A stretch of 32,000 nt of DNA from Allobaculum fili (lineage in GTDB: Bacteria; Bacillota_I; Bacilli_A; Erysipelotrichales; Erysipelotrichaceae): assembly GCF_020969955.1 (NCBI RefSeq), contig NZ_JAHDSX010000003.1, forward strand, positions 60,001 through 92,000. The letters run 5' to 3'. Positions 1 through 17,527 of this stretch are shown here, piece after piece. The notes beneath the pieces were generated by a model that did no database searches, was not told the DNA's origin, and saw only the letters and a program-made list of their open reading frames with translations. Position 1 is the first letter of the stretch, and each line of letters starts with the position of its first letter. The position numbers and the translations under genes were made by a program.

Positions 1-1829
1 AGACGCGAGCTGAACAGGCGGGCGATGTCAAATGCGTTTCGAAACTCATCTTCCACGATCAGATAGCCTTTTTCCATTTCCGGCACCTGCCAGAGATGGC
101 TTTCATAATGCATGCGCTCTTCCAGCTGGTTCTGTTCCAGACGGGTGTGCGTATATTCACAGAAACTTGGGTAATACTGCGAAACGTTCCAGCGAATATC
201 GGCAATCGGCGATTTAGAAGAACTGAACCAGTAAATCTCATCTGCCCCATTCGCCAGACCTTCAAGGGCGATTTCCGTACCGACGCCAAGATAGCGGGAA
301 ATTCCAGGAACAATGCGGTTCTGCATGCCAGGGCCGTCCACATGCCAGATCGCCCGGCAAGTGCCGGCTTCGCTGGCAGGCGGAGCAAGGACTTCAACAA
401 GCGGCTGATGGACGAGATGGCTCAGGGCGTCGACCAGACCGTCCACACTGCGGTCGAGCGCGCAGTAAGTGAGCGGATCGCCCGAAGATTCACAGATTTC
501 CAAAATGTTTCGCAGACCGATCTGACCTGTTCCTAAAAGATTGGAAGGTTCCAGAAGCAGAACGAACTGTACCTCTTTGAGGAAGCCGATATTGTTGTGA
601 ATGAACGTGTGGTTATAAATGTTGTGGAACGTAATGATGCCGACGCTGATGTCGTCGCTTCTTCCCTTCTCACTGAGCTCCTCCGTCATCCACAGCTTTT
701 TCAGGTTGGTCGTTTCCAGAAATCCGTCGGTAATCCATTCCTTGATATCCTGTGCGTCCGTACTTCGGCCGCAGATCACGAGAACCTTTTTATTTTTAAG
801 GAGCGTGGCAATCATCGGAAGCATGAGGTAATACGTGAAGTCTCTATAAAAGGGATTCATTACGACCAGACTTTCACGGTTAAGCAGCTGTCTTGCCGCC
901 TTCTGATAGTCCGGCTGCAGAGGAATTCCGATATCCAGCAGGGAGTTGAAATACGCAGAAGCCAGTTCATCGATTTCTGTGTTTTCGAGAGCATCTTCCT
1001 GATAGAGTCCGGTGACTTTTGCCACCGTTTTTCTTTTCTGATGATCATCGAAGCAAAGCCGGTCTCGGAACATTTTTTTAAGAGACGCACGGATCGTATC
1101 GCATTCCGCGCTGTTTTCTTCTTCGGCCAGAATTTTTCCTTCGTTTTTCTCAGGCTGCCAGCCGTTTAAAAAGGCGAAGCATTCTCCAAGAATCAGGATT
1201 CCGGCAACCGGCGTCATCATTGCGGGAATGTTCGATCCCCCAATGCCGGAATACACATACTGGGTAATGAGATAAATGAAATAGCAGAAGAAGACTGCCG
1301 CCATGATCAGAACCCGCAGATTGTAGTACCGCGGCTTGAGCACGTAGCGTTCCTGCGGATTGGTGTACTGCCGCAGGGCTCTTTCATCTTTCTCGTAAAA
1401 TTCGCCAGAAGTCAGATCAAACAGATAGGCATGGTTTTCCCAGAGGCTGACCAGTTTTCGAAACGTCAGTTTCTTGACGAGCAGCCAGAACAGAGCCAGC
1501 AAAATGTTGGACCAGACAAAGGCCCCCAGACCCGTCAGAATCGTGCCGGCCAGCCAGGCAAAGAACGCATAGAGATAGCGGCCAAGCAGAGGAATCTGGC
1601 CAACTAGATTCGCGATCCAGATCAGAATGTCGTACAGAAACTGAAGAACGGCATCGTTGTTGAACATGCCAAGGCACACAACAAGCAGACAGAGGAACGG
1701 AACAGCGAACTGATAGCAGCGCTTTTTCGGTTTTTCATGAATCAGAAACGGCGTCATGATGAAAAAGAACTGAAAGGCGAACAGAACCCAGAACAGGATA
1801 AAGGAGATAAATGCGTGGATATAATTCAT
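1..1829 (-). CDS. Polytopic membrane protein with a large soluble C-terminal region, function unknown (3' end cut by window edge; absent from supplied ORF track)
   Basis: Manual reverse translation from ATG 1829-1827 gives 609 uninterrupted codons to the window edge (MNYIHAFISFILFWVLFAFQFFFIMTPFLIHEKPKK ... LIVEDEFRNAFDIARLFSSRL). The first ~215 aa hold at least five hydrophobic helices and the rest is soluble. AGGAGGA lies 8 nt upstream, inside the last codons of the upstream gene, whose TAA (1836-1834) is 4 nt from this ATG. The plus-strand ORFs listed here (96..536, 597..1169) are antisense shadows. Confidence 0.75.
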   Translation of the reverse strand, partial: MNYIHAFISFILFWVLFAFQFFFIMTPFLIHEKPKKRCYQFAVPFLCLLVVCLGMFNNDAVLQFLYDILIWIANLVGQIPLLGRYLYAFFAWLAGTILTGLGAFVWSNILLALFWLLVKKLTFRKLVSLWENHAYLFDLTSGEFYEKDERALRQYTNPQERYVLKPRYYNLRVLIMAAVFFCYFIYLITQYVYSGIGGSNIPAMMTPVAGILILGECFAFLNGWQPEKNEGKILAEEENSAECDTIRASLKKMFRDRLCFDDHQKRKTVAKVTGLYQEDALENTEIDELASAYFNSLLDIGIPLQPDYQKAARQLLNRESLVVMNPFYRDFTYYLMLPMIATLLKNKKVLVICGRSTDAQDIKEWITDGFLETTNLKKLWMTEELSEKGRSDDISVGIITFHNIYNHTFIHNNIGFLKEVQFVLLLEPSNLLGTGQIGLRNILEICESSGDPLTYCALDRSVDGLVDALSHLVHQPLVEVLAPPASEAGTCRAIWHVDGPGMQNRIVPGISRYLGVGTEIALEGLANGADEIYWFSSSKSPIADIRWNVSQYYPSFCEYTHTRLEQNQLEERMHYESHLWQVPEMEKGYLIVEDEFRNAFDIARLFSSR

Positions 1830-1833
1830 CGGT

Positions 1834-3813
1834 TTAATCCTCCTGATCCTTCAGGCCGCTTTTTTCTACGACCTTCATTTCATAAGGTTCCAGACGTTTT
1901 TTATCGATGCTCGTCACAAAGGGAAACGGCGAATGAATGACCGTTCCGTCCGGGAACGAGACAAAGACGGGATCTTCCGGTTCTTCCAGCAAATATGCCG
2001 GGTTTCGTTCAGGCGGAATTTCCAGATCGAAAATTACCGTATGCACGATGCGGCTGTTCGAACCTGGCCAGATGTTGAACGCGTTCATCCAGCTTTTTAC
2101 CGTAGCCGCCCGGTTGTCGATGGCCTTGATGTGCGCCAGACACTTCAGCTCCTGATTGGAGCGGCTGTTGTTTTCCTTTTCGAAGCGATAGACAATTCGA
2201 TTTCCCCGGATGGATGCGCAGCAGTTTTTCAAATACTGCGTAATCGCGGGAATTTTGGCTTCGATGGAGTGGAGCGCCTGATCAAGGGTGTAGTTGTATT
2301 CGAAAATGCGAACCCCCAGAATCACCCAGAAAACGACGATCACCGCAATGCAGAAGATCAGCATGCCAATCGATGCCGCATAAACTAAAAACGAGTAATC
2401 CCCCATGGACTGATTGCGCATCAGACAATAGGCGACAAAAGGAATGACGCCTAAGAAACAGGCGCAGATGCACACCGCTGTCGCGGCGAGCGCCTTGAAG
2501 GAATACATGCGGTGGCTCATGTTTTTCTGGACCACTTTATCCCGTTCTTTCAGTTTGATGTGCACCTGTCGGAGCTTCATCATGATCGGCGTATAGCCGG
2601 AAAGGACTTCATGTTCGTAATCGGCTGTCTCCTCCCGTATCGCGGCGATCTGATAGGAGTTGAAGTTCAGCTCCTCTGCCGATTCGAGTTCGACGGCCTG
2701 ATGCGCGTACTGACAGCTGCGTTCGACCGAGCGCTCATACGCACCGATTACTTTTCGAAACGCTCTTCGACTTACGCGGACCTTCTTTTTCCAGGCAGGC
2801 AGTTCGGGTCTTGGCAGATCCCCTGTCGGCCCGGTAAAAAAGCGTGGAATATAAATATCGTCATTCGAAGTGAGGGTGATGTCGACCGGAATCGAACGTT
2901 CGAGATCCGGCGTATCCAGATTTTTCGAGGTGTAGTTCACGGAATGAAGAACATCAATTTCCTGCTGCAGAAAGAAGCGAATATCGTTCATTTTCAGAAG
3001 GTATTCTTCGAAATAGGTCTTCAGAACCTCTTCACTGGCGTTGGCCGACATTTCATACAGGCGATAGGCTTCAAAAGTTCCCGCCGGGAACTCCTCTTCC
3101 GCTAAAAGCAGCACGGTCAGCCAGAAGCGAAACATGGATTCCTGAAACATGGATGTATCCGGTTTGGCCTGCCTGAATGTGAGAAAACGGCAGGCTGCAG
3201 GATAACGGTTTCGCTGCCAGAACAGGGACGCATAAAAATCGCCGATATTTTCGATTTCCGGTTCTTCGTACGAGATGGAATCGGATTCGGACTCAATCAT
3301 CGTGCGAAACAGAAAGATTTCGTTTGGCTTTGGAATCGGCATTTCCGACTGCTCGGAAAGTTTGTCGTACAAAGCCTTTTGCTGATCGAGAAGAATCTGG
3401 TAATCGTCATCGCCCATGCTTTTGCGCCGGGTCGCTTCCAGACTGATGTCGGGAATGCCCCCAAGCATCTGGCTTAAGCGGATCAGGGCGTACTTGCTCT
3501 TATGGACTAAAGGAAACAGATCATCGTTTTCGATGTAGTCAAAAGGATTTCCTTTCTGGGTCGTCTTTTCCCGGTTATCCAGTTCCCAGTGATCCGCCGC
3601 CGTCCCGTCAATCGGGTCGACGACAATCGCGCGCCAGTTCTTAACGCCTTCGAGCTGGGTCTTTAAATCTGGAAGAGCTTCATAAAAGTCTTCACCATTT
3701 TCGTCCCAGAAACAGAAGCAGACTTTTTCTTTTTCAATTGAGTTTTCGAACAGCAGCTTATGCTGGTCAAAGCTTCTCTGCGCCGATCTGGGATAAATAA
3801 TGACAGTCAGCAA
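1834..3813 (-). CDS. Hypothetical 659-aa protein with a C-proximal two-helix membrane hairpin
   Basis: Long ORF with a TTG start at 3813 preceded by AAAGGAGGAG 6 nt upstream. It has a ~440-aa soluble N-terminal part, then two adjacent hydrophobic helices (ALAATAVCICACFLGVIPFVAYCL and FLVYAASIGMLIFCIAVIVVFWVILGV), then a ~140-aa tail. I can assign no motif to a known family. Confidence 0.8.
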   Translation of the reverse strand: MLTVIIYPRSAQRSFDQHKLLFENSIEKEKVCFCFWDENGEDFYEALPDLKTQLEGVKNWRAIVVDPIDGTAADHWELDNREKTTQKGNPFDYIENDDLFPLVHKSKYALIRLSQMLGGIPDISLEATRRKSMGDDDYQILLDQQKALYDKLSEQSEMPIPKPNEIFLFRTMIESESDSISYEEPEIENIGDFYASLFWQRNRYPAACRFLTFRQAKPDTSMFQESMFRFWLTVLLLAEEEFPAGTFEAYRLYEMSANASEEVLKTYFEEYLLKMNDIRFFLQQEIDVLHSVNYTSKNLDTPDLERSIPVDITLTSNDDIYIPRFFTGPTGDLPRPELPAWKKKVRVSRRAFRKVIGAYERSVERSCQYAHQAVELESAEELNFNSYQIAAIREETADYEHEVLSGYTPIMMKLRQVHIKLKERDKVVQKNMSHRMYSFKALAATAVCICACFLGVIPFVAYCLMRNQSMGDYSFLVYAASIGMLIFCIAVIVVFWVILGVRIFEYNYTLDQALHSIEAKIPAITQYLKNCCASIRGNRIVYRFEKENNSRSNQELKCLAHIKAIDNRAATVKSWMNAFNIWPGSNSRIVHTVIFDLEIPPERNPAYLLEEPEDPVFVSFPDGTVIHSPFPFVTSIDKKRLEPYEMKVVEKSGLKDQED

Positions 3814-4117
3814 TGTACACTCCTCCTTTCTTTTTTCAAAAGCAGAAATTCAGTAAAGCAATTACAGTAAGGCAAATCCATCATGGATTCGAAGGAACGG
3901 ATCTAAAGCGGGGAAAAAGCCGACTGGCTTCATCGCAAAATGAAATTTTCATCTTCTTCGTGAATTTCCATCCGCGAAAAATAGATAAAGGATAGAAGAA
4001 CGAGAAGGAAAAGCCGCTGCAGGAAAAAACAGAAGGAAAGAAGAGATTTGGCAGCAGTTCCCCTCTTCTTTCGATCTTTCAATCCTTTGAAACTTTTCGA
4101 ATCATGATCCTATAGGT

Positions 4118-4157
4118 AAATAGCTCCTGCATTGGAAGGGCAGTGCAGGAGCTATTT
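4118..4157. repeat. Perfect 14-bp inverted repeat (AAATAGCTCCTGCA - 12 nt - TGCAGGAGCTATTT) in the spacer downstream of the tubulin-like gene
   Basis: Arms at 4118-4131 and 4144-4157 are exactly complementary. No U-run follows on either strand, so this is not a canonical intrinsic terminator. Confidence 0.8.
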
Positions 4158-4264
4158 CAAACGTTCAGCCAGATCCTGGCTATTCTTTACAGAACCAGAG
4201 AGAAGCCAAAGCGATTTCTTCTGAATCTTTCAGTGAAGTAAAGGATTCGGGAAATTCGAATACT

Positions 4265-7200
4265 TTAAGCGTTCTTTGCTTCTTCGCCGTTCTTTGCTTC
4301 TTCGGCATTTTTTGCCGCCGCATGAATCATTTCCTGATACTTGCGATCGTAGAGCTCTTTCATCGTTGGTTCGTGATGATACTTCAGCTTGTAGAGATAC
4401 TTGTTATCGACGATCTCATCAATGCGGTCGCGAATCAGAGTTACGGATTCATCGTCAAAGCGTTTTGCCGGCTTCGGTACGTTTACGTAATCAGTCATAT
4501 TGTTCAGGAAAAGCTGGAACTGATCGGAAATAATCGAGAAGGCTACCGCGTACATCTCTTCTTCGCCTGTAAACGTGCTGACATAGTTTTCGATCAGAGC
4601 GATCAGGTTATCGATCATGGAAGTGAAGTCGGACAGATAGTAATCGCAGTTCGGCATGCTGTATTTGAGCCAGAAGAGAAGATCGAATACCGATGGTTTC
4701 ATGGGGCTCTTTACAGGGATGAATTCCCGGAGAACGAATTTTGGCTCGTCCTCGCGGACAGCTTCTTCATCGTAGTAATCGCCGAGTGCCTTTTTCTCAT
4801 CCAGCCAGTTGATTCGACGGATCAGGGTAGACTGCGCGAGAGACAGGCTCTTCTTCACCTGCTTTTCCTTTTCCGCTTCCATTTTGCGAAGCATGATGTC
4901 TACCTGCGGCGGGTTGATGCTTAAGGCGTCGAGAACTTCGTAAAGTTCATCGCAGCTTGTGCCGTTTGGAACAATGAAGTCTTCGTTGCTGGAGTTGGAA
5001 GGCTTATAGATTACGTCCATGCCGTCGAGGTGATTGGAATCGACTTTCTGATCCACATCCCCGGTAAGCATTCCCCAGAGGAAAGCCTGGAAGATTCCGT
5101 CTTCGACAATCTTCTGGTTGCGGTCATCCAGATCCGGCATATACTTCGTCAGATGCCAGTGACGGTCCATGTGGGGAGTGATCTCGAAATTCTTCTCTAC
5201 GTTCGGACCCAGTTTCCTGTAAATCCGCATATAGGCTTCGTAGTAGTCTCCGCCTGGCTTTCCATTTTCCGGAGCGCGGAAGCGTTTGAAGTCACCCGGA
5301 TTGAGTGTATATACCGCTTTGTAGACGAGCAGATCGTACTTGGAAATGTTTTTATCCGCAACGCCGCCAAGTTCCTGATTCAAATACTTCTGAACAAAGT
5401 CATGGCGAAGCGGGTCGTCATCCAGCAGAACCGCCGGGTTATAGGCAGCTGCACGAATCACGTGACCTTCCACACCCATCGGCTCTTCGAGGAACATACT
5501 GGCCAGATTGTTGACTTCGGTCAGGGTATCCGCAGCGACCAGTTCTACATCTTCACGGCTGAGCTCATCGGCATGACGTTCAATTTCTACTTCTTTCATC
5601 AGAGCGGAAATGACGTCCATGTCAATGACTTGCGCGAAATGATTCTGAATTTCATCTTTGTAGTATTTGATGATCACATCGCGGAACAGTTTGCCAAAAT
5701 GCGAAGCTGCCGGAGGACGCTTTTCCGTTTTGGAATATTCCAGAATATCCTGGAAAATCAGAGCGGAAAGCTTGCCGGTAATTGATTCCTGCGCATCCGC
5801 TGCCCCGACGATATCGAGAAGTTCTTCCAGGCAGGCTTGACTGGTACATGTATAGCGAATAGCGCTGCCGTCGCGGTTGGCAATCTGCTGAGGAATCAGG
5901 CGTACGCGATTGCTTTCTTTTTCCACAAACGTTGGATACGTTTTATAGAAGTCATCAAAATCGCTGGCCAGCTGAGTAAAGAATTTAATGCCTTCGCCAT
6001 AGACAATCAGTTTTGCCCATGCGCTGGCAAACGTGAAAAATTCGGATTCATCACTGACAAGCGTTTCCGTTTCCTCAATAAATTTCTTGATGATCCGTCT
6101 TGAAATTTTGTTTCGATTTTTCTTGTTGTAGCGATCGTTCGCCGTTTCCACTTTATTTGTCGTAGCGGGATCATCGAACGGATGCAGCATGGATCGTTTG
6201 GCATCATCGTCTTCGCCAAGTTCCTCCTGGGCCGTCGAGTAGGCATAATTGCAGTTGCGAACCATGGCATAAACCATGTAGCGAACGGCGTTTGGATGAA
6301 CGAAGCCTCCGTCTTCCGTCTTCAGATAATGCTGGAAGTAATAGGGTTTCGGATTCTTTCCTCGAGGTGAAGCGCTGAAAACATCCAGGGCAACGTGACG
6401 GCCGGTTTCACGGGAAACGCGCATCAGACTTTGTGCAAGTCGAATGATGGCCCCTTCCAGAGAATTGATCGCGCCTTTATCGACTTTGCCTTTGGAAGCC
6501 TGCAGGCGTGAACGCTGTTTGTTGATCTCAAAAAGGATCTGTTTGATCTCTTCGTTCTCGCGGATTTTCTTTTCCAGATGACTATCCAGAGCATGGACGA
6601 AGGATCGGGACAGTTCTTCCCACTGTGTTCCTTCTCCATATTCATCTTCGTGTTCTTTATGGGTCTGGCGGAAAATCATCTGCTGGAATGTGCCTTTGTC
6701 ATCGGATTTGGAGTCTACATTCTTAAGGTAGAACGTATGCGGGTCTTCAAATTCGACCGAAGGATCCTGCTTTTTCTCCGCTTTCCGTTTATTCAGGTCT
6801 TCTGTATACGCTTTATCGATCGTCAGCCATTCTTCACCAAGCTGTTCAAAGCAGGTCTGTCCGGCGAGATAGTCGAGAATTTCTTCATACGGATATTTCA
6901 GGACCGCAGATCCGGCACCGCAGAAACGATCCCGTCCGCCCGACTGAATGAGCGCCTTAATGGCATTGTCTTCACTGGAGTTGCTTCGACTGGATGCGCC
7001 GCTGATCGCCTGCGCGTAAATCGTATTGGCTGCATACGTCATGTATTCATCGAAGCTGCTGAGCGAAAGATCATCCGCGTTGCGGCGATCGAACAGGAAG
7101 CAGAAATTGAATGGCGATTCGTTGTAGTTCACATCTTTTCCGGACATTGGGTGAGGAACTGAGAACTCAAGATCTTTGTACTTTGTGTTTTCCAGAGCCT

Positions 7201-7858
7201 GGTCGCCTTTGCGCATGAAGGCATCCAGCTCACGGACGGATGCATAGGCATTGGCAAAGATGCTTGCCTTCTCATCCTGGCTCTTTGCGGAAGCGAAAAT
7301 TTCCGGCAGCAGGAAGAAACCGCGAACAACCGATCCGGTTTTGTTAAAGCTGGAGTTGAGAAGATGCTTAATGTACATCGCAATAGGAATTACGATTCCA
7401 GAGCCCGTACCGCCGGCTAAGGAAGACACAATAATGACGCGGATCGCCTGGTTGCCAGCATCGCCGTTGAGCCGGAACAATGTGTCGATCGCATCGTCGA
7501 GCGCACGCAGCTTGCCTTTGCTCATCGCTTCGTCCAGGGCCAGCCGGCTGATCGCACGAACCTGTCCTGCACCTTCTGTCGGTGTCTTGCTGTTCAGAAT
7601 GGTATGAATGGGGAACCAGTCTTCACGGGCGTGTCTGTTGCGCTTGAGATAGTCTTCAATTTTATAAGGTGCCGATGTCTGAATCTGTACGACCGTGGCA
7701 TCTTCTTCTTTTCTGTGTCTCAGATCATTCCGGTCTGTATCAATGCAGACAAACTGCAGGCGGTTTCTGTCTTTCAATGACTTCGCCATCTTCGAAAGCT
7801 TCGTGCAGATCGTACTGCCCGCGCCGCCAAGTCCAATAATTACTGTTGGAGCAGTCAT
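4265..7858 (-). CDS. Giant (1197 aa) tubulin/FtsZ-superfamily GTPase-like protein (Tubulin_2 / FtsZ-like type) with a long unassigned helical C-terminal extension
   Basis: The N-terminus carries the tubulin/FtsZ nucleotide-binding loops in order. T1 is VIIGLGGAGS (nt 7814-7834), T3 is TEGAGQVRAISRLAL (aa 94-108), and the T4 signature is SSLAGGTGSGI (AGGTGSG = nt 7397-7417). These are followed by FANAYASVRELD, reminiscent of tubulin YNATLS..L.E. A strong RBS (AAAAGGAGGAAATGGA) precedes the ATG. There is no signal peptide or TM helix. Confidence 0.85.
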   Translation of the reverse strand: MTAPTVIIGLGGAGSTICTKLSKMAKSLKDRNRLQFVCIDTDRNDLRHRKEEDATVVQIQTSAPYKIEDYLKRNRHAREDWFPIHTILNSKTPTEGAGQVRAISRLALDEAMSKGKLRALDDAIDTLFRLNGDAGNQAIRVIIVSSLAGGTGSGIVIPIAMYIKHLLNSSFNKTGSVVRGFFLLPEIFASAKSQDEKASIFANAYASVRELDAFMRKGDQALENTKYKDLEFSVPHPMSGKDVNYNESPFNFCFLFDRRNADDLSLSSFDEYMTYAANTIYAQAISGASSRSNSSEDNAIKALIQSGGRDRFCGAGSAVLKYPYEEILDYLAGQTCFEQLGEEWLTIDKAYTEDLNKRKAEKKQDPSVEFEDPHTFYLKNVDSKSDDKGTFQQMIFRQTHKEHEDEYGEGTQWEELSRSFVHALDSHLEKKIRENEEIKQILFEINKQRSRLQASKGKVDKGAINSLEGAIIRLAQSLMRVSRETGRHVALDVFSASPRGKNPKPYYFQHYLKTEDGGFVHPNAVRYMVYAMVRNCNYAYSTAQEELGEDDDAKRSMLHPFDDPATTNKVETANDRYNKKNRNKISRRIIKKFIEETETLVSDESEFFTFASAWAKLIVYGEGIKFFTQLASDFDDFYKTYPTFVEKESNRVRLIPQQIANRDGSAIRYTCTSQACLEELLDIVGAADAQESITGKLSALIFQDILEYSKTEKRPPAASHFGKLFRDVIIKYYKDEIQNHFAQVIDMDVISALMKEVEIERHADELSREDVELVAADTLTEVNNLASMFLEEPMGVEGHVIRAAAYNPAVLLDDDPLRHDFVQKYLNQELGGVADKNISKYDLLVYKAVYTLNPGDFKRFRAPENGKPGGDYYEAYMRIYRKLGPNVEKNFEITPHMDRHWHLTKYMPDLDDRNQKIVEDGIFQAFLWGMLTGDVDQKVDSNHLDGMDVIYKPSNSSNEDFIVPNGTSCDELYEVLDALSINPPQVDIMLRKMEAEKEKQVKKSLSLAQSTLIRRINWLDEKKALGDYYDEEAVREDEPKFVLREFIPVKSPMKPSVFDLLFWLKYSMPNCDYYLSDFTSMIDNLIALIENYVSTFTGEEEMYAVAFSIISDQFQLFLNNMTDYVNVPKPAKRFDDESVTLIRDRIDEIVDNKYLYKLKYHHEPTMKELYDRKYQEMIHAAAKNAEEAKNGEEAKNA

Positions 7859-8058
7859 TCCATTTCCTCCTTTTTTCTTTTTCTCTTTGTAGTGCTGATT
7901 TTTATTTCTGACTGGCCAGGCCAGCCTGTGAAACCAATAGCGAAAATGCCCGTTCGTCTCAAGTCCGCTTCCGTTAATTTCCCTTAGAACATACGGCTTT
8001 ACACAAGGCCTTCTGGATCCTGGACGGGCGGGTTTAAACCTTGTGAAGCCATTCCGGA

Positions 8059-10698
8059 TCAGTGTTTTTTGTTGGAAAATTTGAAGCTGACGGTGACATT
8101 GGGGTCGGTCATCACCTTAAGACCCTTAAGCACAAACGGTGTTTCATATCCGAACACAAGATTGATGACCTTTTCCGGATTCGTACCCAGCGAATAATTT
8201 TTATGGTTAAACGTAAAAGCGCATCGGTTGCAGAGGGCTTCTGGATTTTCCCAGCGAATGTTCCCGCCTTTAACCGCGGTGAACTGCAGGCTGAGTTCAG
8301 AAATAATTCCGTTTGTATTTCCTAATTCGAAATTCAGCGTTGCACTCTCGGGTTTAAACGGATTAATCCGGTCGCTGAAGGACAGTTCGTAATCCTGCCG
8401 CGGACGGCCTCTTCCCTCCAGTCCCATCCTGATTCCGCGCCGATCCAGATAATGGCCTTTGGCGCTGACATATGTACCCCGTTTAAAACGCGGTTTGGTA
8501 ATAAATTTATAGACAAGGAACAGGGTAAGAAGCGATGCCAGAACAATCAGGATGAATTTCAGTAAATACGCCCACAGAGAAAGCGGCATGATGCTGATCG
8601 CATCTTCTGTCTGGCCTTCTTCCTGCTGTCCGCTGGCCAGCGTAATGTCCAGGTCCACGTTCAGATCCAGGTCGTTGGGAAGGACGCTGGTTGCTGCGGG
8701 TCCGCCCAGATAGAAGCGGTAACACGATGGCTGCTCATCTTTGACTACATCAAATTCCAGCGACTGGAAGCAGACCCACCGAATGAGCTGATCGAGAAAA
8801 TTCGGGGCGTGCTGGCTGGCTGTAAACGTAAAGCTGCTTACGCCTCTTTCCCATTCGTCTTCATTAAGATCTCTCAGTGAGCCGTCCTCTTCTTCGACCT
8901 GCACTTTGGCGAGAATATAGGCTTCGCTTCCCGAGCCTCTCTGGTTCGGATCGAACATGTAGGTTCGTTCGCCTTTTTTATACGTCTCCTCAGGATTCTG
9001 AAGCGTAATCATCAGATTCAGCGGCTCTGGTGCGACATAGCGAATTTCCACGTTGCCTTCCCCCGCCTGCTGATAGCTGCCGTTATCGCGGGTGACTTTG
9101 AGGACAAGATTCTGAGTTGTCGATGTAATGCCCGATCCCTTCTGATCGGTCGCATAAGAAGGCGTCAGATTTACGACGCCGTCCTGGTCGCTCATTGAGA
9201 TCTCCCAGTTCACCCCTTCGGTACCGGTGACTTCGAATGAGTAGGAATCAAAGGTATCCTTATTGATTCGGGTTCCATCCGGTGCCGAGACCGAAGCCTG
9301 CACAGGCTGCTCTCCGCTCAGCGTTCCCGGGTTGATATCGTATCCAGCCGGCTGCGAAAAGAGGACGGAGATCGGTGCGTCTTTTACATCCAGTTTTGCC
9401 GATTCTCCCGTCATGTTGATATTTCCCGGAAGCCGGGCGACCGACTGAAGAGTGGCTTTGCCTGGTGCTAAATTCAGTTTTTCTCCGTTGGTGTACGTGA
9501 CTGTGTTTCCGTCTTCATCCGTTACGGTCAGCGCAAATTCCGAACCTTTAAGAAGTTCCGACTGAGAAGGGTCAATCGGTGTTCCCGTAAGCGGGTCAAA
9601 GATCTGAATAACGACTGTACTTTCTCCGCCAGGAATGGATATGCCGTCCTGAATTTCTGTATCGGTAGTTACTTCGGATCCGCTGCGCAGAATCGTCCGG
9701 AATTCAATTCCGGGTTCTACATACACATCCACGTCATCGGACGTACTTTCGAATGTGTACTTTCCCGAAGAGAAAGGCTTCTTTGGATCCTTGGCTTCAT
9801 ACGTCACCACTTTGCCGTTCAGATTTGGAGCAATGGCACAACCCGAATTGCATTCCGGCTGCGGAGTCTTATCGTTTACCGAAACCTCTACAGAGAAAGG
9901 CTTGGCCGGTACATCTTCGCCGTTGATTTTTGCGTTCGTTACTTCTGTCTGCTTGCCCTGAGCAAAAACGATGAATTTTGAAATGGGTACGTCCGCCTGA
10001 AAGGAATAGGAGGAATCTCCCTGAAGCGTGACTTTCTGCAGGGAAAATACCTTCTGGGCAATTTCTGTCAGAGCACCCAGAATCGAACTCGTATCAATGT
10101 AGTACGCTTCGTAGCCGTCGTGACTCAGACTGATCTCCTCCGCATAGGACCCGATTCCCACATAGATCATATTGATGCCGTTCACGCCCGCATATTTCTG
10201 GAAATCGGATCGAATCTCCTCATTGCTCAGTTCGGTTGTATCGTTGAAAAACGCACCGTCTGTCAAAATGACAAGCCATTTCTGCTGAGCTGTGGACTGT
10301 TTGAGGTTTTCGCCCGCGGCATCGACGGCCTGGATCGGCGTGCCGGATGTATCCTTCATGTCATTGATCCGTTTGACACGATCGGCTGGATCTTCCGTTC
10401 CCTTTAAAGTAAAGAAGTCATTTTTCGAATCGTTATCTTCGGCTTTGCTCATCGGAAAAACGTTCAGTGTATCTTCTTCACCCATAAAGGCTGAAAAAAC
10501 TTCCATTGCATATTTCGCCTGAGACCAGCTGTCCATCCGGGAATTGCTCATACTGCCGGAATCGTCGTAGACAACGTTGATCTGCGTCGTATCCTTGCTG
10601 GTTTCCATCGCGGAAATCGGTGCGGTCCAGAAGGACCCGAACACTGTGAAAGCAGCCAGCATTGAAGCGAATACTTTTTCCATTTTTTTAATGAACAT
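8059..10698 (-). CDS. Secreted, C-terminally membrane-anchored von Willebrand factor A (vWA/MIDAS) domain protein, 879 aa
   Basis: Sec-type signal peptide (MFIKKMEKVFASMLAAFTVFGSFWTAPISA/ME), then a vWA start with an intact DxSxS MIDAS motif (VVYDDSGSMS; DDSGS = nt 10552-10566). A ~480-aa beta-rich T/S/V/G region follows, then a TM helix (LWAYLLKFILIVLASLLTLFLVYKFI) followed by KPRFKRG (positive-inside) and a ~150-aa cytoplasmic tail. The RBS is AGGAAG, 7 nt upstream of the ATG. Confidence 0.85.
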   Translation of the reverse strand: MFIKKMEKVFASMLAAFTVFGSFWTAPISAMETSKDTTQINVVYDDSGSMSNSRMDSWSQAKYAMEVFSAFMGEEDTLNVFPMSKAEDNDSKNDFFTLKGTEDPADRVKRINDMKDTSGTPIQAVDAAGENLKQSTAQQKWLVILTDGAFFNDTTELSNEEIRSDFQKYAGVNGINMIYVGIGSYAEEISLSHDGYEAYYIDTSSILGALTEIAQKVFSLQKVTLQGDSSYSFQADVPISKFIVFAQGKQTEVTNAKINGEDVPAKPFSVEVSVNDKTPQPECNSGCAIAPNLNGKVVTYEAKDPKKPFSSGKYTFESTSDDVDVYVEPGIEFRTILRSGSEVTTDTEIQDGISIPGGESTVVIQIFDPLTGTPIDPSQSELLKGSEFALTVTDEDGNTVTYTNGEKLNLAPGKATLQSVARLPGNINMTGESAKLDVKDAPISVLFSQPAGYDINPGTLSGEQPVQASVSAPDGTRINKDTFDSYSFEVTGTEGVNWEISMSDQDGVVNLTPSYATDQKGSGITSTTQNLVLKVTRDNGSYQQAGEGNVEIRYVAPEPLNLMITLQNPEETYKKGERTYMFDPNQRGSGSEAYILAKVQVEEEDGSLRDLNEDEWERGVSSFTFTASQHAPNFLDQLIRWVCFQSLEFDVVKDEQPSCYRFYLGGPAATSVLPNDLDLNVDLDITLASGQQEEGQTEDAISIMPLSLWAYLLKFILIVLASLLTLFLVYKFITKPRFKRGTYVSAKGHYLDRRGIRMGLEGRGRPRQDYELSFSDRINPFKPESATLNFELGNTNGIISELSLQFTAVKGGNIRWENPEALCNRCAFTFNHKNYSLGTNPEKVINLVFGYETPFVLKGLKVMTDPNVTVSFKFSNKKH

Positions 10699-10904: not shown

Positions 10905-10933
10905 ATTATTTTTGTTTCGTTTGAATATATCAA
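10905..10933 (-). promoter_or_regulatory. Possible sigma-A promoter for the vWA/tubulin-like cassette
   Basis: On the minus strand: TTGATA (10933-10928), a 17-nt spacer, then AATAAT (10910-10905). This would give a ~200-nt leader. Pattern match only. Confidence 0.3.
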
Positions 10934-11511: not shown

Positions 11512-11601
11512 GGAGTCGTGTCCGAGCGGTTTAAGGTGCAGTCTTGGAAAGGCTGTGTAGGCGAAAGCTTACCCAGGGTTCGAATCCCTGCGACTCCGCC
11601 A
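11512..11601 (+). tRNA. tRNA-Ser (anticodon GGA), type II with long variable arm, CCA encoded
   Basis: Acceptor stem GGAGTCG/CGACTCC. Anticodon stem CAGTC/GGCTG with loop TTGGAAA (GGA at 11546-11548). Long variable arm, T-arm CAGGG-TTCGAATC-CCTG, discriminator G and a 3' CCA (11599-11601). Confidence 0.9.
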
Positions 11602-12038: not shown

Positions 12039-13826
12039 ATGAGCAAATCCATGCGCGGACTGTGGATCTGGACATCTCTGTTCTTTTCCCTGTTTGCTTC
12101 CTGGCCAAAACTGATGGAGTACGGATTATCTCCGTTTTTTAAATCCTATGTTTTATGGCTTCTTTTTTATAGCCTTCTTTTTCTGGCTATTGCCTTTCTC
12201 TTTACCGTCCTGAACAGAAAGTTCAATCTGCGCTCGAGGCGATCCCTTCTGGTTCATTCATCCACAACAAAAAAACAGGAACGCTTTCTGTTCTGGAGCG
12301 TCCTGCTGCTGATGATTGTGACCTGGATGCCGGCGTTCCTGGCGTTTTTCCCAGGAACCTTTGGCGCGGATGCCCCGATCCAGCTGGCGATGTATAACGG
12401 CGATCTGCCGTTCACGACGCATCATCCGTGGCTTCATACCCTTCTGCTTGGCTCCCTGCTCCGACTCGGAAACATTCTCTTTCACAACCCGAACGCAGGG
12501 ACCGGTATTTACATTTTCTTCTTTCAGATCGTGTTCTGCGCCTATGCGATCGCCAAAGCGATGCTGTATCTCTATCGAAAAGGCCTCAACGCCTGGATTC
12601 TGATCACGACTTCCTTTTTTATGGCCGTCTCGCCTTTCTCGCAGATGCTCGTGTGCTATACGACCAAGGATATAATGTTCGCTCCGGCTCTCCTTTTATT
12701 TATTGTTTCGATCTGCTCGCTTCTCTTCCCGCCAAAGCCCTCCGAAAGCGCCAGAGCCGATCTTTCCTCACCTGCAGAAAATCCAAAGGCTGTTCGGGAG
12801 AAAGACAGATCTGCAGCGTCGTCTTCCCTTCTGAAAAAGACAGCCGAGATTATCGGCTGGGGCGTTCTCATGTGTCTTTTGCGCAATCAGGGGTTATACC
12901 TGGCCATACTCGGTCTGATCCTTCTCTTCTTTGTCTATCTAAAAGACAGAAAGAAGCGCATTGTTCAGCTTTTTATGATTTCTCAGGTTTCCATACTTGT
13001 TTTGGGCTGGCTGCTTACTTCCCTTGTCCCTTCCATTGCCGGCATCAAGATTAACAATCCCCGGGAAATGCTTGCTCTGCCGATTCATCAGCTTGCCTTT
13101 GAACTGAACCGCAACGATCAGATCGAAGAGAAGTTCATTTCCAAAGAAGACGAGGCTCTCGCCTACAGCTATTTCGATGACTTTACGCCCGATCAGCTGG
13201 ATCCGTTCAGTGCAGACAGTTCCAAGGATCTTTTTTACAACGAAAAGTTCTCCGAAAATCCGGGACAGTTTATTTCCCTGTATTTGCGGGTACTGACAAC
13301 AGACTGGCGCGGCGCGATTCAGGCAGCCGCCTATCTGACCGCTCCCTATTTCGATATGCGCTATGGAGAGTACAATGCGCTCTCTGTTATGACGAGCTAC
13401 GAAGACTACGCGGATAAGCAGCATATCGCTTCCTATTCTCTGCTTCCCGGCTACCGCGACAAACTGCGCGGCATTGCAATGCAGTCGGCCACCTTTGACA
13501 ACTGTCCGCTGTGGCTGCGTTTCTTTGACCCCGGCATTACCCTTTATCTGGTGATCTTCCTTCTTGGCTATGCTATTTTCTTCCGAAGCAAGTTTGCGGC
13601 AACCGCGTGCCTCTATACCGTTCTGTATATTCTGACCATGCTGCTTGGGCCTGTTTCCCTGCTGCGCTATTCCTTTATCTATACGTATCAGTGGCCGTTC
13701 CTTCTTGGCGTTCTGCTTTTGAGCGCTCTGTCCCGCAAGCCAAAAAAGAAAACAGCCCGTATAAAACGGACCGTACGCAAATCGGCTGCCGATCCAGCCG
13801 CTGCCGCTTCCAAAGCGGCTATCTAA
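12039..13826 (+). CDS. Polytopic integral membrane protein, DUF6020-like / GT-C-type glycosyltransferase-like (family assignment tentative)
   Basis: 595-aa ORF with GGAGGA 7 nt upstream of the ATG. It has more than 10 hydrophobic helices. The motif FPGTFGADAPIQL...THHPWLHTLLLG resembles the D..Q...HHP..HT signature I associate with DUF6020-type envelope proteins. Basic C-terminal tail. Confidence 0.8.
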   Translation: MSKSMRGLWIWTSLFFSLFASWPKLMEYGLSPFFKSYVLWLLFYSLLFLAIAFLFTVLNRKFNLRSRRSLLVHSSTTKKQERFLFWSVLLLMIVTWMPAFLAFFPGTFGADAPIQLAMYNGDLPFTTHHPWLHTLLLGSLLRLGNILFHNPNAGTGIYIFFFQIVFCAYAIAKAMLYLYRKGLNAWILITTSFFMAVSPFSQMLVCYTTKDIMFAPALLLFIVSICSLLFPPKPSESARADLSSPAENPKAVREKDRSAASSSLLKKTAEIIGWGVLMCLLRNQGLYLAILGLILLFFVYLKDRKKRIVQLFMISQVSILVLGWLLTSLVPSIAGIKINNPREMLALPIHQLAFELNRNDQIEEKFISKEDEALAYSYFDDFTPDQLDPFSADSSKDLFYNEKFSENPGQFISLYLRVLTTDWRGAIQAAAYLTAPYFDMRYGEYNALSVMTSYEDYADKQHIASYSLLPGYRDKLRGIAMQSATFDNCPLWLRFFDPGITLYLVIFLLGYAIFFRSKFAATACLYTVLYILTMLLGPVSLLRYSFIYTYQWPFLLGVLLLSALSRKPKKKTARIKRTVRKSAADPAAAASKAAI

Positions 13827-14266: not shown

Positions 14267-15415
14267 CTATCCATAGACCTTTTCCGGCTGAAAGAGCATC
14301 TTGATGCCCTTCCACAGCCATTTCACAATCCAGGAAAGAATAAAGGAAAGCACGAAGAGAATCGCCTCCATGCAAAGGGTATAGAGCAGACTGAAAGCGA
14401 AACCGTTGCTTTTCAAAATCAGATTTTGCAGAGACTGAGTAAATCCTACGCTGGTCAGAATGCGCAAAATGGGAAAGTGAACAATATAGATCAGAAAAGA
14501 ATACGAAGCGGCTGCACAGATCATCGATTCTGCACCCGCTTCAACCGCTTTTTTAGCGCCTTTTCTGGGGCGAATGGCTGCCAGACCAAAAATCAGAATG
14601 AGTGCCGAGGCCAGCATGCCCCAGGCGGAATACCAGTACAGCGCGCTCGCATCGCCCGGATCTGCCGCAAAATGTTTCATCTGGACCCTGGCCCGCGCCA
14701 GATTCAGGAAAACGAAACCGGCCAGTGCCGCAGCGGCAGTGATCCAGCCGTGAAAGTGTTTTCGATTTCGATACAGAATATGTCCCCAGATCACTTCGAT
14801 GGAAGCCGGAATGGCTGCTCGGAACAGATAGTGAGAAAAGCCGGCGAGATGGTTGGACGTCAGATCGTTCACAATAAAGAACCCTAACGTAGCAGCCATA
14901 AAAAGAATGGTGGCGACTCGGGATCGATCCAGCCCGTCCGCAATCCATTTCAAAACCGGAAAGAACAGAAAGACGAGCAGATTGACGTACAAATACCACA
15001 GATGATCCATGCCGATTACACCGTTTCGCCATTGCAGAAAATCATTCAATACCGCCGGAATATCCGAAGGGACAAATCCGGGCAGGGGCAGACTGTTCAT
15101 CGCAATGCCGAGCAGACTCGCCAGAACGAGCGGAATAAAAATCCGGGTAAACCCTCGCTTGAGCGTTTTGCCATACGTACTGGAAAACAGAAAACAGCCG
15201 ATGACCATCCAGAAAATACCAACGCCATCCGCTGCCAGGCAGGCAATAAAGACACGGCCAAAAGCCGGTTCGCCGTTAATGATCACTGGCGGATACGAAT
15301 GACAGAGCAGAACGATCAGACAGGCGATCAGCCGAACCAGTTCTACGCGGGCATCTCGGCCCCTTTTCTTTTTTGGCCTGGATCGAGTCAGAGCCATTGT
15401 AGTGGATTGTGTCAT
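14267..15415 (-). CDS. Membrane acyltransferase, acyltransferase-3 family (382 aa)
   Basis: About 10 TM helices and an N-terminal RVELVRLIACLIVLLCHS motif typical of acyltransferase_3 (R..E..R.....V...H). The start is placed at ATG 15415 (AGGAGG, 8 nt, ATG). The track's longer 424-aa version has no RBS. Confidence 0.8.
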   Translation of the reverse strand: MTQSTTMALTRSRPKKKRGRDARVELVRLIACLIVLLCHSYPPVIINGEPAFGRVFIACLAADGVGIFWMVIGCFLFSSTYGKTLKRGFTRIFIPLVLASLLGIAMNSLPLPGFVPSDIPAVLNDFLQWRNGVIGMDHLWYLYVNLLVFLFFPVLKWIADGLDRSRVATILFMAATLGFFIVNDLTSNHLAGFSHYLFRAAIPASIEVIWGHILYRNRKHFHGWITAAAALAGFVFLNLARARVQMKHFAADPGDASALYWYSAWGMLASALILIFGLAAIRPRKGAKKAVEAGAESMICAAASYSFLIYIVHFPILRILTSVGFTQSLQNLILKSNGFAFSLLYTLCMEAILFVLSFILSWIVKWLWKGIKMLFQPEKVYG

Positions 15416-15592
15416 TTTTAAACCTCCTGCAAATCGTAAACGATCGGCTTTATTGTAACGGACTGAGCAGACAATTGACGAATTCTTAAAAATCGGGCAT
15501 TTCAAATAGTCGAACGCAAAAGATCCTCTGACAAAGTCCATTCCTTTTCCCTCGATTTTTCTGGTCCGTATTCATCGCCGTTTCTTATGACC

Positions 15593-15661: not shown

Positions 15662-16168
15662 TTATTCTTCGCAGGACTCTCCGCAGTTGCCGCAGAAACG
15701 GGCATCCAGCGGAAGTTTGGTGCCACAGAACGGGCAGTATTTAAACGTCATCGGCTGCTCGAACGGGTCTGAACGGTTTGAATCGCCGTTTCCGGTTTTG
15801 TTTCTGGAATCCAGATCTTCACACGGGCTGAGACTTTCGAGTCCATCTAAACTGTCCAGACTCTCAAGATTATCGAGACTGTCCAGATCGATTGAGCGAA
15901 GCTGGTCAAATATGCCGCCGGTTGAAGCGGCAGGTTCCGGTTTTGGCAGGTCCATCGTCTCAGTATGACGATCCCGCAGTTTGAGCTGTTCTTTAAGATG
16001 CGTAATCTGATCAAAATAAAGAATCAGTTCTGGCGTCGGTTCTTCGAAACGATTTTCATAAAACGCTTTGCCCAGTTCCCGGTACGCCGCATCGAGGGCT
16101 TCCAGAGACGATTCCCCTTGATCGGCTTTTGGCATTCGAATAAAAACTGTTTTATTATTTCCGCTCAT
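15662..16168 (-). CDS. Small cytoplasmic protein with C-terminal zinc ribbon and acidic Leu-Asp/Glu-Ser repeats (168 aa)
   Basis: C-terminal CPFCGTKLPLDARFCGNCG zinc-ribbon motif and a central IDLDSLDNLESLDSLDGLESL repeat. The ATG at 16168 lies 4 nt after the upstream stop (TAA 16175-16173). Confidence 0.75.
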   Translation of the reverse strand: MSGNNKTVFIRMPKADQGESSLEALDAAYRELGKAFYENRFEEPTPELILYFDQITHLKEQLKLRDRHTETMDLPKPEPAASTGGIFDQLRSIDLDSLDNLESLDSLDGLESLSPCEDLDSRNKTGNGDSNRSDPFEQPMTFKYCPFCGTKLPLDARFCGNCGESCEE

Positions 16169-16172
16169 AGTC

Positions 16173-16484
16173 TTACCCCAGTACAATCGCAAATTCGCGC
16201 TGCTTCAAATAGATCGCCGTATCCCGCCCAAGGTAATATCGACGATGTTTCCCCAGCGGCTGCCCGCTTTCTAAAAAGACAGCCCGGTTTTCAAACGGCT
16301 CAATTCCATACATGCCCAGATCACAATCGTAAAAAATGCCGACAGACGCCTTTTCGCTCTGTTCCAGAACGACTTCCGGCTCTTCCTCCATCTCCACGAA
16401 CACTTCTTCCAGATGGTGCAGCAGAACCGCTTCTCCCTTATGGAATGAGTCTGTGCCGATCAATACGCCTTCAAATCGGTTCAT
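16173..16484 (-). CDS. Hypothetical 103-aa protein (T7SS-locus associated)
   Basis: ATG 16484 is preceded by AAGGAGGA 8 nt upstream and overlaps the FHA gene 3' end by 14 nt. The track's 140-aa version starts further upstream without an RBS. No recognisable motif. Confidence 0.65.
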   Translation of the reverse strand: MNRFEGVLIGTDSFHKGEAVLLHHLEEVFVEMEEEPEVVLEQSEKASVGIFYDCDLGMYGIEPFENRAVFLESGQPLGKHRRYYLGRDTAIYLKQREFAIVLG

Positions 16485-17424
16485 GACGCAAATCCTCCTT
16501 GCTTTGTTCAAGCTGGAACAGCTGATTGGAGCCAAGGCGAAGAATCTGTCCGTCTCGGATTTCCGATTTCTGCGTGACGGGCTGATAATTGACAAACGTC
16601 TTGGAAGAAGAATTGAGATCTTCCACCATAACGCGATTCTCTTCCAGCGTCAGCCGGGCATGCCGCTCAGAGAGTGTCGTATCAAAATCGATGACAAAGT
16701 CGCTTTGCCTTCCGCATCCGATCAGCAGCTCTTTTTGCAGGCGAATCTGAATGCCCGTATTCATATGACGCAAAAACCAGTTTGACCGGGAACGCACGAT
16801 CGGTTCGGGCTCTGGGATGGAATCGGAATTTTGTACCATACCATCGTCAGAACTTTTCGGTATTTCAGCGAGCACTTCGACAGCTTCGGCAGCTTCGGCG
16901 GCTTCCTCTGGGGCTGGATCGGTTCTGAAGTCCAGCAAGTCATCCAGATCTCGCATAGCCGTATCTTCCGCCTTTTTTTCCTCGACTTCCTGATAATTTT
17001 GTTCCTGCTGAGTTTCGACAGGATCCGCTTTATCCTGCACGATGGTTTCTGCTGGACGTTCCGGTATGATTTCTGGAGCCTTCTTGCTCAAAAGGTCCGT
17101 CTCCACTTTGGAATCTGAGGAAAATTCCCGGAACATCTGATCAAAGATGTCTTTTTTGGATGACGTGGTTTCGTTTTTTGCGGATTCGAAAGCTGGAAAA
17201 CCGGCAGGCTTTTCTTCCGGAAAAACGAACGGTTCGGGTTCGGTCTGGGAATGGATGTTTGAGAAATCGCCGCCGCAGATTTCCTTTTCTTCGCTGTCTA
17301 CGGCTTTATGTCGAATGGGATCGCTGGCTGTTCTGGGAACCACGATCGGAATCAGCCCGCTAATACGGGCGGAAACCGGCGGGATATCCAGTGACGAAAC
17401 AGAAATCCACTTTGCTTTTTTCAT
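16471..17424 (-). CDS. FHA-domain protein with long acidic, probably disordered N-terminal region (317 aa)
   Basis: C-terminal FHA pattern: LLIGCGRQSDFVIDFDTTLSERHARLTLEENRVMVEDLNSSSKTFVNYQPV...DGQILRLGSNQLFQL (G-R ... S..HA ... N.t.vNg). ATG 17424 is preceded by AAGGAAGGA. Confidence 0.85.
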   Translation of the reverse strand: MKKAKWISVSSLDIPPVSARISGLIPIVVPRTASDPIRHKAVDSEEKEICGGDFSNIHSQTEPEPFVFPEEKPAGFPAFESAKNETTSSKKDIFDQMFREFSSDSKVETDLLSKKAPEIIPERPAETIVQDKADPVETQQEQNYQEVEEKKAEDTAMRDLDDLLDFRTDPAPEEAAEAAEAVEVLAEIPKSSDDGMVQNSDSIPEPEPIVRSRSNWFLRHMNTGIQIRLQKELLIGCGRQSDFVIDFDTTLSERHARLTLEENRVMVEDLNSSSKTFVNYQPVTQKSEIRDGQILRLGSNQLFQLEQSKEDLRHEPI

Positions 17425-17493
17425 GTGTCCTTCCTTATGGCTTATCGTGGTCTGCCTATCCTTTTTTCGGATTCCAAAGAAGGGGGCAGATAT

Positions 17494-17527
17494 ACGAAAC
17501 GTGGCTCGCTGTCGAACCACGTTTCGT
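17494..17527. repeat. Perfect 11-bp inverted repeat (ACGAAACGTGG - 12 nt - CCACGTTTCGT) between the small-protein genes and the FHA gene
   Basis: Arms at 17494-17504 and 17517-17527 are exactly complementary, with no adjacent U-run. A second AU-rich hairpin (CCGTTTTTT ... AAAAAACGG, 17583-17623) abuts the stop at 17626. Confidence 0.7.

Follow-up and report, generated by a model that had tools for sequence, protein, structure and literature searches.

What do four large genes do together when the first encodes a surface protein with a vWA domain, the second a giant GTPase of the tubulin/FtsZ superfamily, and the last two a pair of membrane proteins? The question is raised by a 32,000-nucleotide (nt) stretch of the Allobaculum fili genome (NZ_JAHDSX010000003.1, positions 60,001-92,000; hereafter the window), in which such a cassette, here called genes A to D, fills positions 1-10698. 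An earlier annotation made from the letters and their open reading frames (ORFs), hereafter the sequence-only reading, had proposed a membrane-coupled cytomotive system and had offered membrane remodelling, positioning of a surface structure, or a contact- or phage-triggered response as possible roles. We identify the cassette as an FtsZl1/vWA operon of the four-gene subtype vWA - FtsZl1 - B5 - B12 (membrane zincin/zinc finger). As to its function we tentatively favour, with somewhat less than even confidence, a transmembrane sensor-to-protease conflict or defence system gated by the tubulin-like GTPase.

The family of protein B was defined as FtsZl1 by Makarova & Koonin (2010; PMC2875224), who described its usual vWA partner with an intact metal-ion-dependent adhesion site (MIDAS) together with lineage-specific membrane proteins, and who proposed membrane remodelling or vesicle biogenesis as the function of these operons. 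Additional file 5 of that study (PMC2875224) lists the same four-gene set in Ruminococcus lactaris (RUMLAC_01526-01529) and in Bacteroides capillosus ATCC 29799 (BACCAP_04121-04124; 861, 1183, 658 and 1435 amino acids (aa)), and in size and gene order, the properties compared, our cassette agreed with both. Nothing essential distinguishes it from this subtype, with which it shares the upstream vWA protein with intact MIDAS, B5 (our C) and B12 (our D). The architecture was thus already catalogued in 2010 and is not new. The sequence-only reading had pointed to large Tubulin_2/FtsZl families with membrane neighbours, correctly, as these are the FtsZl1 of the 2010 survey, and had been unable to say whether this exact architecture was among them, which it is. 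Its statement that none is known to have been characterised experimentally also agreed with the literature searched, in which we found no functional study of FtsZl1/Tubulin_2 or of a tubulin-like defence system with vWA, and no function, structure or polymerisation behaviour reported for the family since 2010. What is new here is a tubulin-fold model of protein B that appears to align over the C-terminal half of FtsZ/CetZ as well, a topology assignment, a quantified synteny and a variable accessory-gene repertoire.

Protein B is, by profile and predicted fold, a tubulin/FtsZ-superfamily GTPase with an intact G-box, and is predicted to be soluble and cytoplasmic. It matched Pfam Tubulin_2 (PF13809) over residues 6-335 (E=1.4e-60), and PF00091 in the G-box only, at 28.4 bits against a cut-off of 33. 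The T1, T3 and T4 loops from which the sequence-only reading had drawn the same identity were all present: T1 as GLGGAGS (residues 9-15), T3 as EGAGQ and the T4 G-box as AGGTGSG (148-154). Across 114 sequences G149-G154 was invariant, as were T1 and many other N-terminal positions. Alignment to E. coli FtsZ with hhalign brought T1, strand S2, T3 and T4 into register and was unreliable past T4, and a search of PDB with the sequence profile of protein B returned no significant chain. An AlphaFold2 (AF2) model built on the 114-sequence alignment (predicted local distance difference test (pLDDT) 90.2; predicted template-modelling score (pTM) 0.76) gave 79 Foldseek hits in PDB at E<=1e-3, and all 50 of those listed were members of the tubulin superfamily (gamma-tubulin, CetZ, FtsZ, TubZ and BtubA). 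The structural check of the N-terminus that had been called for thus came out as a tubulin/CetZ/FtsZ/TubZ match. The listed hits covered 325-390 aligned columns, with a target-normalised template-modelling score (TM-score) of up to 0.52, and coverage of the C-terminal subdomain was judged from that aligned length.

The core of protein B (~1-345) is followed by long, coiled-coil-like helices (~340-660) and then by a mixed alpha/beta C-terminal region, which places ~850 residues beyond the core. Makarova & Koonin (2010; PMC2875224) could not identify T6-H7 in FtsZl1. In our model an H7-like helix (269-285) precedes a helix at 288-306 that begins with an invariant RSNSSEDN motif (R291-N298, including E296/D297), which we regard as a candidate equivalent of the T7 loop. 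Homologues of protein B formed more than 940 clusters at 90% identity, and the best 120 listed were all near full length (1131-1247 aa). Protein B shares the GTPase fold and T1/T3/T4 with the cytomotive tubulins FtsZ, TubZ, PhuZ, CetZ and BtubAB (TM-score 0.48-0.52 for CetZ and Staphylococcus aureus FtsZ), but differs in its large inserts, its ~850 extra residues, its lack of FtsZ_C/Tubulin_C, and its partners, which are neither centromere-binding proteins nor divisome components.

Upstream of this GTPase, protein A carries an N-terminal signal-like segment (a signal peptide as judged by eye), a vWA region (~35-225), a variable beta-rich stalk (~226-705), a transmembrane segment (711-729) and a 150-aa cytoplasmic tail, so that the single transmembrane segment and tail of ~150 aa described before were recovered. 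The DxSxS MIDAS, reported as intact, was indeed complete (D45/S47/S49 with T120 and D147) and invariant in 30 sequences. The assignment of the domain itself held in part: the MIDAS residues speak for vWA, but the window protein had no vWA match in Pfam at E<=0.1, and VWA_2 was matched by only six of the 30 homologues, the best at E=3.6e-6, about the gathering score. The family profile of protein A likewise found no significant chain among PDB sequences. Within the family the vWA region was best conserved (34.5% identity), followed by the stalk (21%), which also varies in length, and the tail (16%). The vWA region is predicted to be the only extracytoplasmic part of the whole cassette.

Protein C begins with an alpha/beta domain (~1-260), continues as a long bundle of helices that contains a predicted transmembrane hairpin (436-454 and 482-500), in keeping with the hairpin seen earlier in this 659-aa protein, and ends in a small beta domain; both termini are predicted to be cytoplasmic. 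It had no match in Pfam or among PDB sequences. Its AF2 model (pLDDT 83.3) gave as top Foldseek matches the ClyA-family alpha-pore-forming toxins, weakly (E 5e-3 to 2e-2, TM-score 0.2-0.3). With members of that family (AhlB, SmhB, MakA, YaxA/XaxA) it appears to share an elongated helical bundle and a hydrophobic hairpin (Foldseek probability up to 0.97), but it differs in a root-mean-square deviation above 20 A, the lack of sequence similarity, the extra N-terminal alpha/beta domain and its prediction as a resident membrane protein.

Protein D runs past the window edge, and the window carries its first 609 residues. Its full length of 1538 aa was read from a metagenome contig of a close Allobaculum relative (L001; 99.6% nucleotide identity), which carries the locus beyond that edge. 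The polytopic N-terminal domain that had been noted in the visible part comprises five to six predicted transmembrane segments within residues 1-225, and a very strongly conserved central domain of ~700 residues (~290-1000) follows. Beyond the window lie a disordered linker, a CxxC...CxxC zinc ribbon and an HEMTH...E zincin peptidase. In 25 sequences C1314/C1317/C1336/C1339, H1430, E1431, H1434 and E1461 were invariant (motif HE[LM]TH...EGM). The length of protein D, its HExxH end and the accessory genes beyond the window could not have been seen by the sequence-only reading. Because the loops between the transmembrane segments are positively charged, the bulk of protein D after them is predicted to be cytoplasmic. 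The arrangement that had been suggested, with C and D anchored in the membrane and the vWA ectodomain outside, was thereby upheld at the level of prediction, as the bulk of both C and D falls in the cytoplasm.

Known peptidase families did not claim protein D. Against curated families it scored 18.9 bits with DUF6782 (cut-off 27) and 14.5 with BSP (cut-off 23.8), both below threshold, and its matches to MXAN_6640_HExxH and Hvo_1808 were far below theirs. Neither whole D nor sub-profiles of its central domain and C-terminus gave anything significant against PDB. A degenerate Walker A/B pair ('VLVICGRS ... FVLLLEPS') was considered and dropped, the loop being too short for a P-loop. A word-index homologue search with residues 1-609 found only three proteins; D-like proteins formed 293 clusters at 50% identity, nearly all of 1000-2000 aa and matching at the N-terminus. 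The D homologue in a Treponema metagenome-assembled genome (MAG; L062:15716-20800) had no zinc-ribbon/HExxH end and instead bore N-terminal Cu_amine_oxidN1, Peptidase_S8 (E=1.6e-50) and Big_2 domains. This subtilase is presumably extracellular and suggests that a protease was kept in another form. Two other D homologues (L064 and L066) also lacked HExxH.

Do these four proteins form a unit? All structural details given for the window by the sequence-only reading that could be checked were accurate: four co-directional minus-strand ORFs separated by 200 nt (A-B), 451 nt (B-C) and 4 nt (C-D), a Shine-Dalgarno sequence for gene D embedded in the final codons of gene C, and no opposite-strand gene in between, as all plus-strand ORFs of 100 aa or more within 1-10698 were nested in genes A-D. 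The A-B and B-C gaps held no ORF of at least 40 aa. The TTG start of gene C was backed by the family consensus MLTVIIY and by a ribosome-binding site, GGAGGA.

The answer came from other genomes. The synteny sample comprised 80 genome loci with relatives of protein B, examined by simple ORF calling and clustering, and the families were held by 81 (B), 77 (A), 75 (C) and 69 (D) loci. In 54 loci the sequence was long enough to contain all four genes; 50 of these had the strict co-directional order A-B-C-D, and two of the four exceptions were artefacts of small antisense ORFs; the synteny on which the earlier proposal had been made to depend was therefore found. Median junctions across homologous loci were 29.5 nt (A-B), 24 nt (B-C) and -8 nt (C-D), with C and D overlapping or abutting in most. 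We take the cassette to be a real functional module because the order is kept in these 50 loci with gaps usually below 30 nt. Carriers included Lachnospiraceae, Oscillospiraceae and related families, Erysipelotrichales, some Actinobacteria and Treponema MAGs, a few loci coming from probably mis-binned MAGs. Nearly all were gut or rumen bacteria, and the non-gut actinobacterium Naasia aerilata also carried the cassette. The identity of protein B across loci ranged from 28% to 55%, so the loci do not represent one recently transferred element. A distant Bacillus locus kept the A-B pair alone. All-against-all hhalign revealed no hidden paralogy among the cassette proteins.

Two loci departed from the single-copy arrangement. 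A Turicibacter MAG (L082) held two cassettes in tandem (...B-C-D then A-B-C-D), and L063 held three consecutive A paralogues 5' of gene B, duplications that look like diversification of the extracellular component. The Allobaculum cassette is chromosomal, and carriage on plasmids or phages was considered and rejected. The only matches that a tblastn search of PLSDB with protein B turned up were distant Tubulin_2 proteins encoded on megaplasmids of Deinococcus, Thermus and Azospirillum, and a 5.5-Mb Bacillus 'plasmid' that is evidently a chromosome and has the A-B pair only. For phages, IMG/VR gave no hit and INPHARED a single unannotated contig (MT836542.1; 9.8 kb, 'Bacteriophage sp.', human faeces) with a B homologue at 32.5% identity over 78% of the query, which is likely a misclassified bacterial contig.

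Downstream of gene D the constancy ended. Where 1.5 kb or more of sequence followed D (62 loci), the adjoining gene encoded a soluble ATPase of ~1157 aa with an intact single Walker A in 24, a transglutaminase-like protein in nine, an E-like transmembrane protein in five (including the window's own lineage) and a weakly Castor/Pollux-like transmembrane protein in two; in eight the cassette ended at D with an opposite-strand gene next, and in the rest unrelated housekeeping genes adjoined D. The best family matches of the ATPase were EccCa, EssC and EccCb (E 4e-21 to 3e-16), with TraB and FtsK far behind. Protein E itself (L001:18767-21358) has 863 aa, three N-terminal transmembrane helices, a Rossmann-like motif and no Pfam match. 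In Allobaculum sp. Allo2 it was followed after ~100 nt by a frameshifted DUF4062-like (TIR-like) ORF (L090:16548-17248; beginning MSMNNRESIYTAFLSSTSDLEDIRK), and DUF4062 has recently been reported to be a TIR-like NADase defence family. In L013 and L023 a TIR_2 gene came after the gene for the E-like protein. This pairing of E with a TIR or DUF4062-like protein could be an add-on effector module of the cassette, or an independent two-gene defence system that lies next to it by coincidence. TIR-domain genes lay within 10 kb of eight of 87 loci, and in L013, L023, L088 and L089 directly after the cassette and co-directional with it. The flanks as a whole were not conserved, with 112 Pfam families among 101 immediate neighbours, each in at most four loci; the neighbours seen included type I restriction-modification with HEPN, AbiEi/AbiEii, integrases, integrative and conjugative element (ICE) genes and type VII secretion system (T7SS) genes.

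These observations are the reason why we favour a conflict role. The distribution is patchy and lies in unconserved contexts, the accessory genes appear to be swapped in and include TIR or TIR-like NADases, defence and mobile-element neighbours recur, and A or the whole cassette has been duplicated (L063, L082). The evidence is circumstantial, and so, among the roles offered by the sequence-only reading, it is only circumstantially that the genomic context prefers a contact- or phage-triggered response to structural positioning. In the model that we infer, proteins A-D would form one membrane complex acting as an outside-in sensor and actuator, whether directed against phages, mobile elements or other bacteria. 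A ligand bound at the extracellular MIDAS of A would have its signal relayed across the membrane, where it would nucleate or release self-assembly of B, dependent on GTP, at the surfaces that C and D present to the cytoplasm. Such assembly could serve as a threshold switch that turns on the peptidase of D, the membrane-active helical hairpin of C, or both. The accessory genes would add further outputs, be it the EccC/EssC-like ATPase, the transglutaminase-like protein, or the transmembrane protein with its TIR/DUF4062-like NADase.

A stronger version of this proposal, which we hold to be rather unlikely, is that of a self-contained integrin-like immune device, in which a MIDAS receptor for a phage, toxin or foreign cell would trigger polymerisation of B, which in turn would engage the zincin and the ClyA-like C with plug-in effectors. 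If true, this would be the first tubulin-based defence system and the first function for FtsZl1, and would show that outside-in signalling to a tubulin polymer has a precedent in prokaryotes.

Several points weigh against a conflict role. Extracellular sensing is unusual among known anti-phage systems. None of the PADLOC-DB v2 models of known or candidate defence systems matched A, B, C, D or E, and the accessory ATPase matched generic FtsK-like models only (mad8, SspH). The resemblance of protein C to pore-forming toxins does not reach significance. The flanks include many housekeeping genes (IMPDH, tRNA synthetases, SpoIIIAA, cardiolipin synthase), and the counts of defence-type neighbours are raw numbers, uncorrected for background. 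In the window itself, moreover, the 200- and 451-nt gaps and a hairpin make co-transcription uncertain. Of 74 homologous B-C junctions (median 24 nt) this one has the longest spacer, and its hairpin (Table 1) lies in a stretch (4090-4264) that folds more stably than shuffled sequence (z=-4.2). The hairpin is not a canonical intrinsic terminator as it has no U-tract, and an Rfam scan of the long cassette spacers found nothing. It may act as an attenuator or a processing site, or may be a remnant. The number of sigma-70-like sites in the region was no higher than in shuffles, which makes the best of them (Table 1) weak evidence for a promoter.

A published parallel points the same way as the conflict reading. 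Kaur, Burroughs, Iyer & Aravind (2020, eLife; PMC7159879) described Firmicute and actinobacterial neighbourhoods of tubulins and extracellular vWA proteins around GAP1-N2 GTPases, and read them as conflict systems with variable effectors in which the tubulin gives NTP-dependent multimerisation. Tubulin-domain and coiled-coil proteins and membrane proteins with extracellular vWA are common to these GAP1-N2/DO-GTPase systems and to our cassette. The GAP1-N2 systems contain one or two TRAFAC GTPase genes, however, whereas no non-core ORF with G1, G3 and G4 occurred in 83 cassette neighbourhoods and no GTPase family was present among the conserved neighbour clusters. Their HSP70 and FNIII components were likewise absent from the conserved neighbours of the cassette, which has the hairpin protein C and the zincin D instead.

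The serious rival to a conflict role, unlikely though we judge it, is the one proposed by Makarova & Koonin (2010; PMC2875224) for FtsZl1 operons and put first by the sequence-only reading: filaments of B, anchored via C and D and linked to the outside via A, would shape membranes, make vesicles or position a surface structure, with the D peptidase processing a component. The tubulin/FtsZ fold of B, its conserved nucleotide loops and its long coiled-coil-like region are what such a cytoskeleton would call for, all cassette proteins but B belong to the membrane, and the survival of the A-B pair alone in the distant Bacillus locus suggests an ancient core function. Set against this are the patchy distribution, which resembles that of horizontally transferred genes, with integrases and ICE genes in its unconserved contexts, and the variable accessory genes, which look like effectors (TIR, transglutaminase, ATPase). 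A structural role would also leave the invariant protease and zinc ribbon unexplained, and no cell-envelope biogenesis genes are consistently linked. It is here that we part from the 2010 proposal, as the context seen in our loci leans towards conflict.

A colonisation role would instead make protein A an integrin-like adhesin, binding a host, mucus or partner-cell ligand via its MIDAS and signalling a response inside the cell. An extracellular vWA held out by a long, variable stalk and continued by a transmembrane segment and cytoplasmic tail would suit this role, as would the gut or rumen origin of nearly all loci and the expansion of A paralogues in L063. We nevertheless consider it improbable: linked genes for a sortase, pilin or adhesin are lacking, the TIR, restriction-modification, Abi and integrase neighbours and the EccC-like ATPase are not accounted for, and the cassette also occurs in the non-gut N. 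aerilata.

Equally doubtful, if not slightly more so, is a T7SS-like secretion or translocation accessory, working with an FtsK/EssC-family ATPase to carry proteins or DNA through the envelope, in which A, C and D would be analogous to EccB, EccE and EccD/MycP. The cast is loosely comparable to that of T7SSb/ESX, with a protein that crosses the membrane once and bears a large ectodomain, along with hairpin, polytopic and protease components. The soluble gene-5 ATPase of 24 of the 62 loci falls in the EccC/EssC clade, a bona fide EssC is encoded 8.6 kb upstream of the cassette in the window, EssC and WXG100 genes are directly upstream of it in L002, and the S8 subtilase of Treponema recalls the mycosin of ESX systems. 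Yet a general link to T7SS was rejected after phmmer searches with the window EssC and the ATPase of L003, as a full EssC lay near the cassette only in the window and L002, and WXG100 in one of 87 loci. The gene-5 ATPase differs from EssC/EccC in being soluble, with a single intact Walker A, and in being missing from 38 of the 62 loci, eight of which have an opposite-strand gene straight after D. Neither A nor C nor D showed homology to T7SS components, and the profiles of the three matched neither one another nor the ATPase; C and D are predicted to lie mostly in the cytoplasm, and conserved substrate genes are absent. EsaA, EssA and EssB were not among the conserved cassette neighbours, with no search aimed at other T7SS core components.

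That the four large genes adjoin by chance and form no functional unit, as the long spacers and stable B-C hairpin of this one locus might suggest, is effectively refuted by the synteny, with one order and short or overlapping junctions kept over several phyla, and has a negligible probability.

The tubulin superfamily has no branch more divergent than FtsZl1/Tubulin_2, and the compact four-gene subtype, being fairly widespread in gut and rumen Firmicutes, offers a practical entry to the role of giant tubulin homologues. Its invariant residues can be mutated: the MIDAS in A, the G-box and the E296/D297 motif in B, and HExxH in D. Should the conflict reading be true, a cytoskeletal-type GTPase and an extracellular sensor would be added to bacterial immunity; should remodelling be true, Gram-positive bacteria would have a new membrane-shaping machine.

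Table 1. Features of the Allobaculum fili window, numbered from its first nucleotide.
Feature	Position	Strand	Description
Gene D ('B12' of Makarova & Koonin)	1-1829	-	Open frame from ATG at 1829 to window edge; 609 of 1538 codons
Shine-Dalgarno of gene D	1838-1844	-	AGGAGGA, inside final codons of gene C, 8 nt 5' of ATG
Gene C ('B5' of Makarova & Koonin)	1834-3813	-	ORF, 659 aa; TTG start; stop TAA at 1836-1834, then 4-nt spacer to gene D
B-C spacer hairpin	4118-4157	-	14-bp stem, AAAUAGCUCCUGCA...UGCAGGAGCUAUUU
Gene B	4265-7858	-	ORF, 1197 aa; FtsZl1/Tubulin_2 GTPase
Gene A	8059-10698	-	ORF, 879 aa; vWA/MIDAS surface protein
Best sigma-70-like promoter match	10905-10933	-	TTGATA-17-AATAAT, 10 of 12 positions, ~207 nt 5' of gene A ATG; consensus scan
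tRNA-Ser(GGA)	11512-11601	+	~0.8 kb upstream of gene A
DUF6020 membrane protein	12039-13826	+	Between cassette and EssC locus; also in L001
Acyl_transf_3 acyltransferase	14267-15541	-	Between cassette and EssC locus; also in L001
Small Zn-ribbon protein	15662-16192	-	EssC neighbour
FHA protein	16471-17520	-	EssC neighbour
EssC	19294-24048	-	1584 aa, FHA and FtsK_SpoIIIE; NCBIfam equivalog 803.7 bits (cut-off 778.4)
Ser/Thr kinase-TPR protein	24384-26411	-	EssC neighbour
Zn-ribbon-TPR protein	26544-28655	-	EssC neighbour
SIR2-family protein	30842-31591	-	249 aa, E=5e-48; possibly a housekeeping deacetylase

The remaining features of the window and its relatives concern the surroundings of the cassette (Table 1). 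In L064 a co-directional gene (L064:871-4878) ~2.3 kb upstream of the cassette, with two smaller ORFs between, encodes a 1335-aa protein with Ser/Thr kinase, AAA_16 (STAND-like) and TPR domains. This gene and the kinase-TPR gene of the window recall the link between FtsZl1 and kinases reported by Makarova & Koonin. The window shared 99.8% nucleotide identity with Allobaculum sp. Allo2 (CP078088.1, 2257703-2279313, our L090), whose assembly has 18 indels across 10.8 kb relative to the window. The Allo2 cassette genes look fragmented because of these indels (P0121, for example, is a 536-aa piece of D), and the fragmentation probably reflects long-read indel errors and not true pseudogenes. In the window, the interval of 10-12 kb has the lowest G+C (0.42-0.46), and together with the tRNA-Ser gene it could be an island insertion site.

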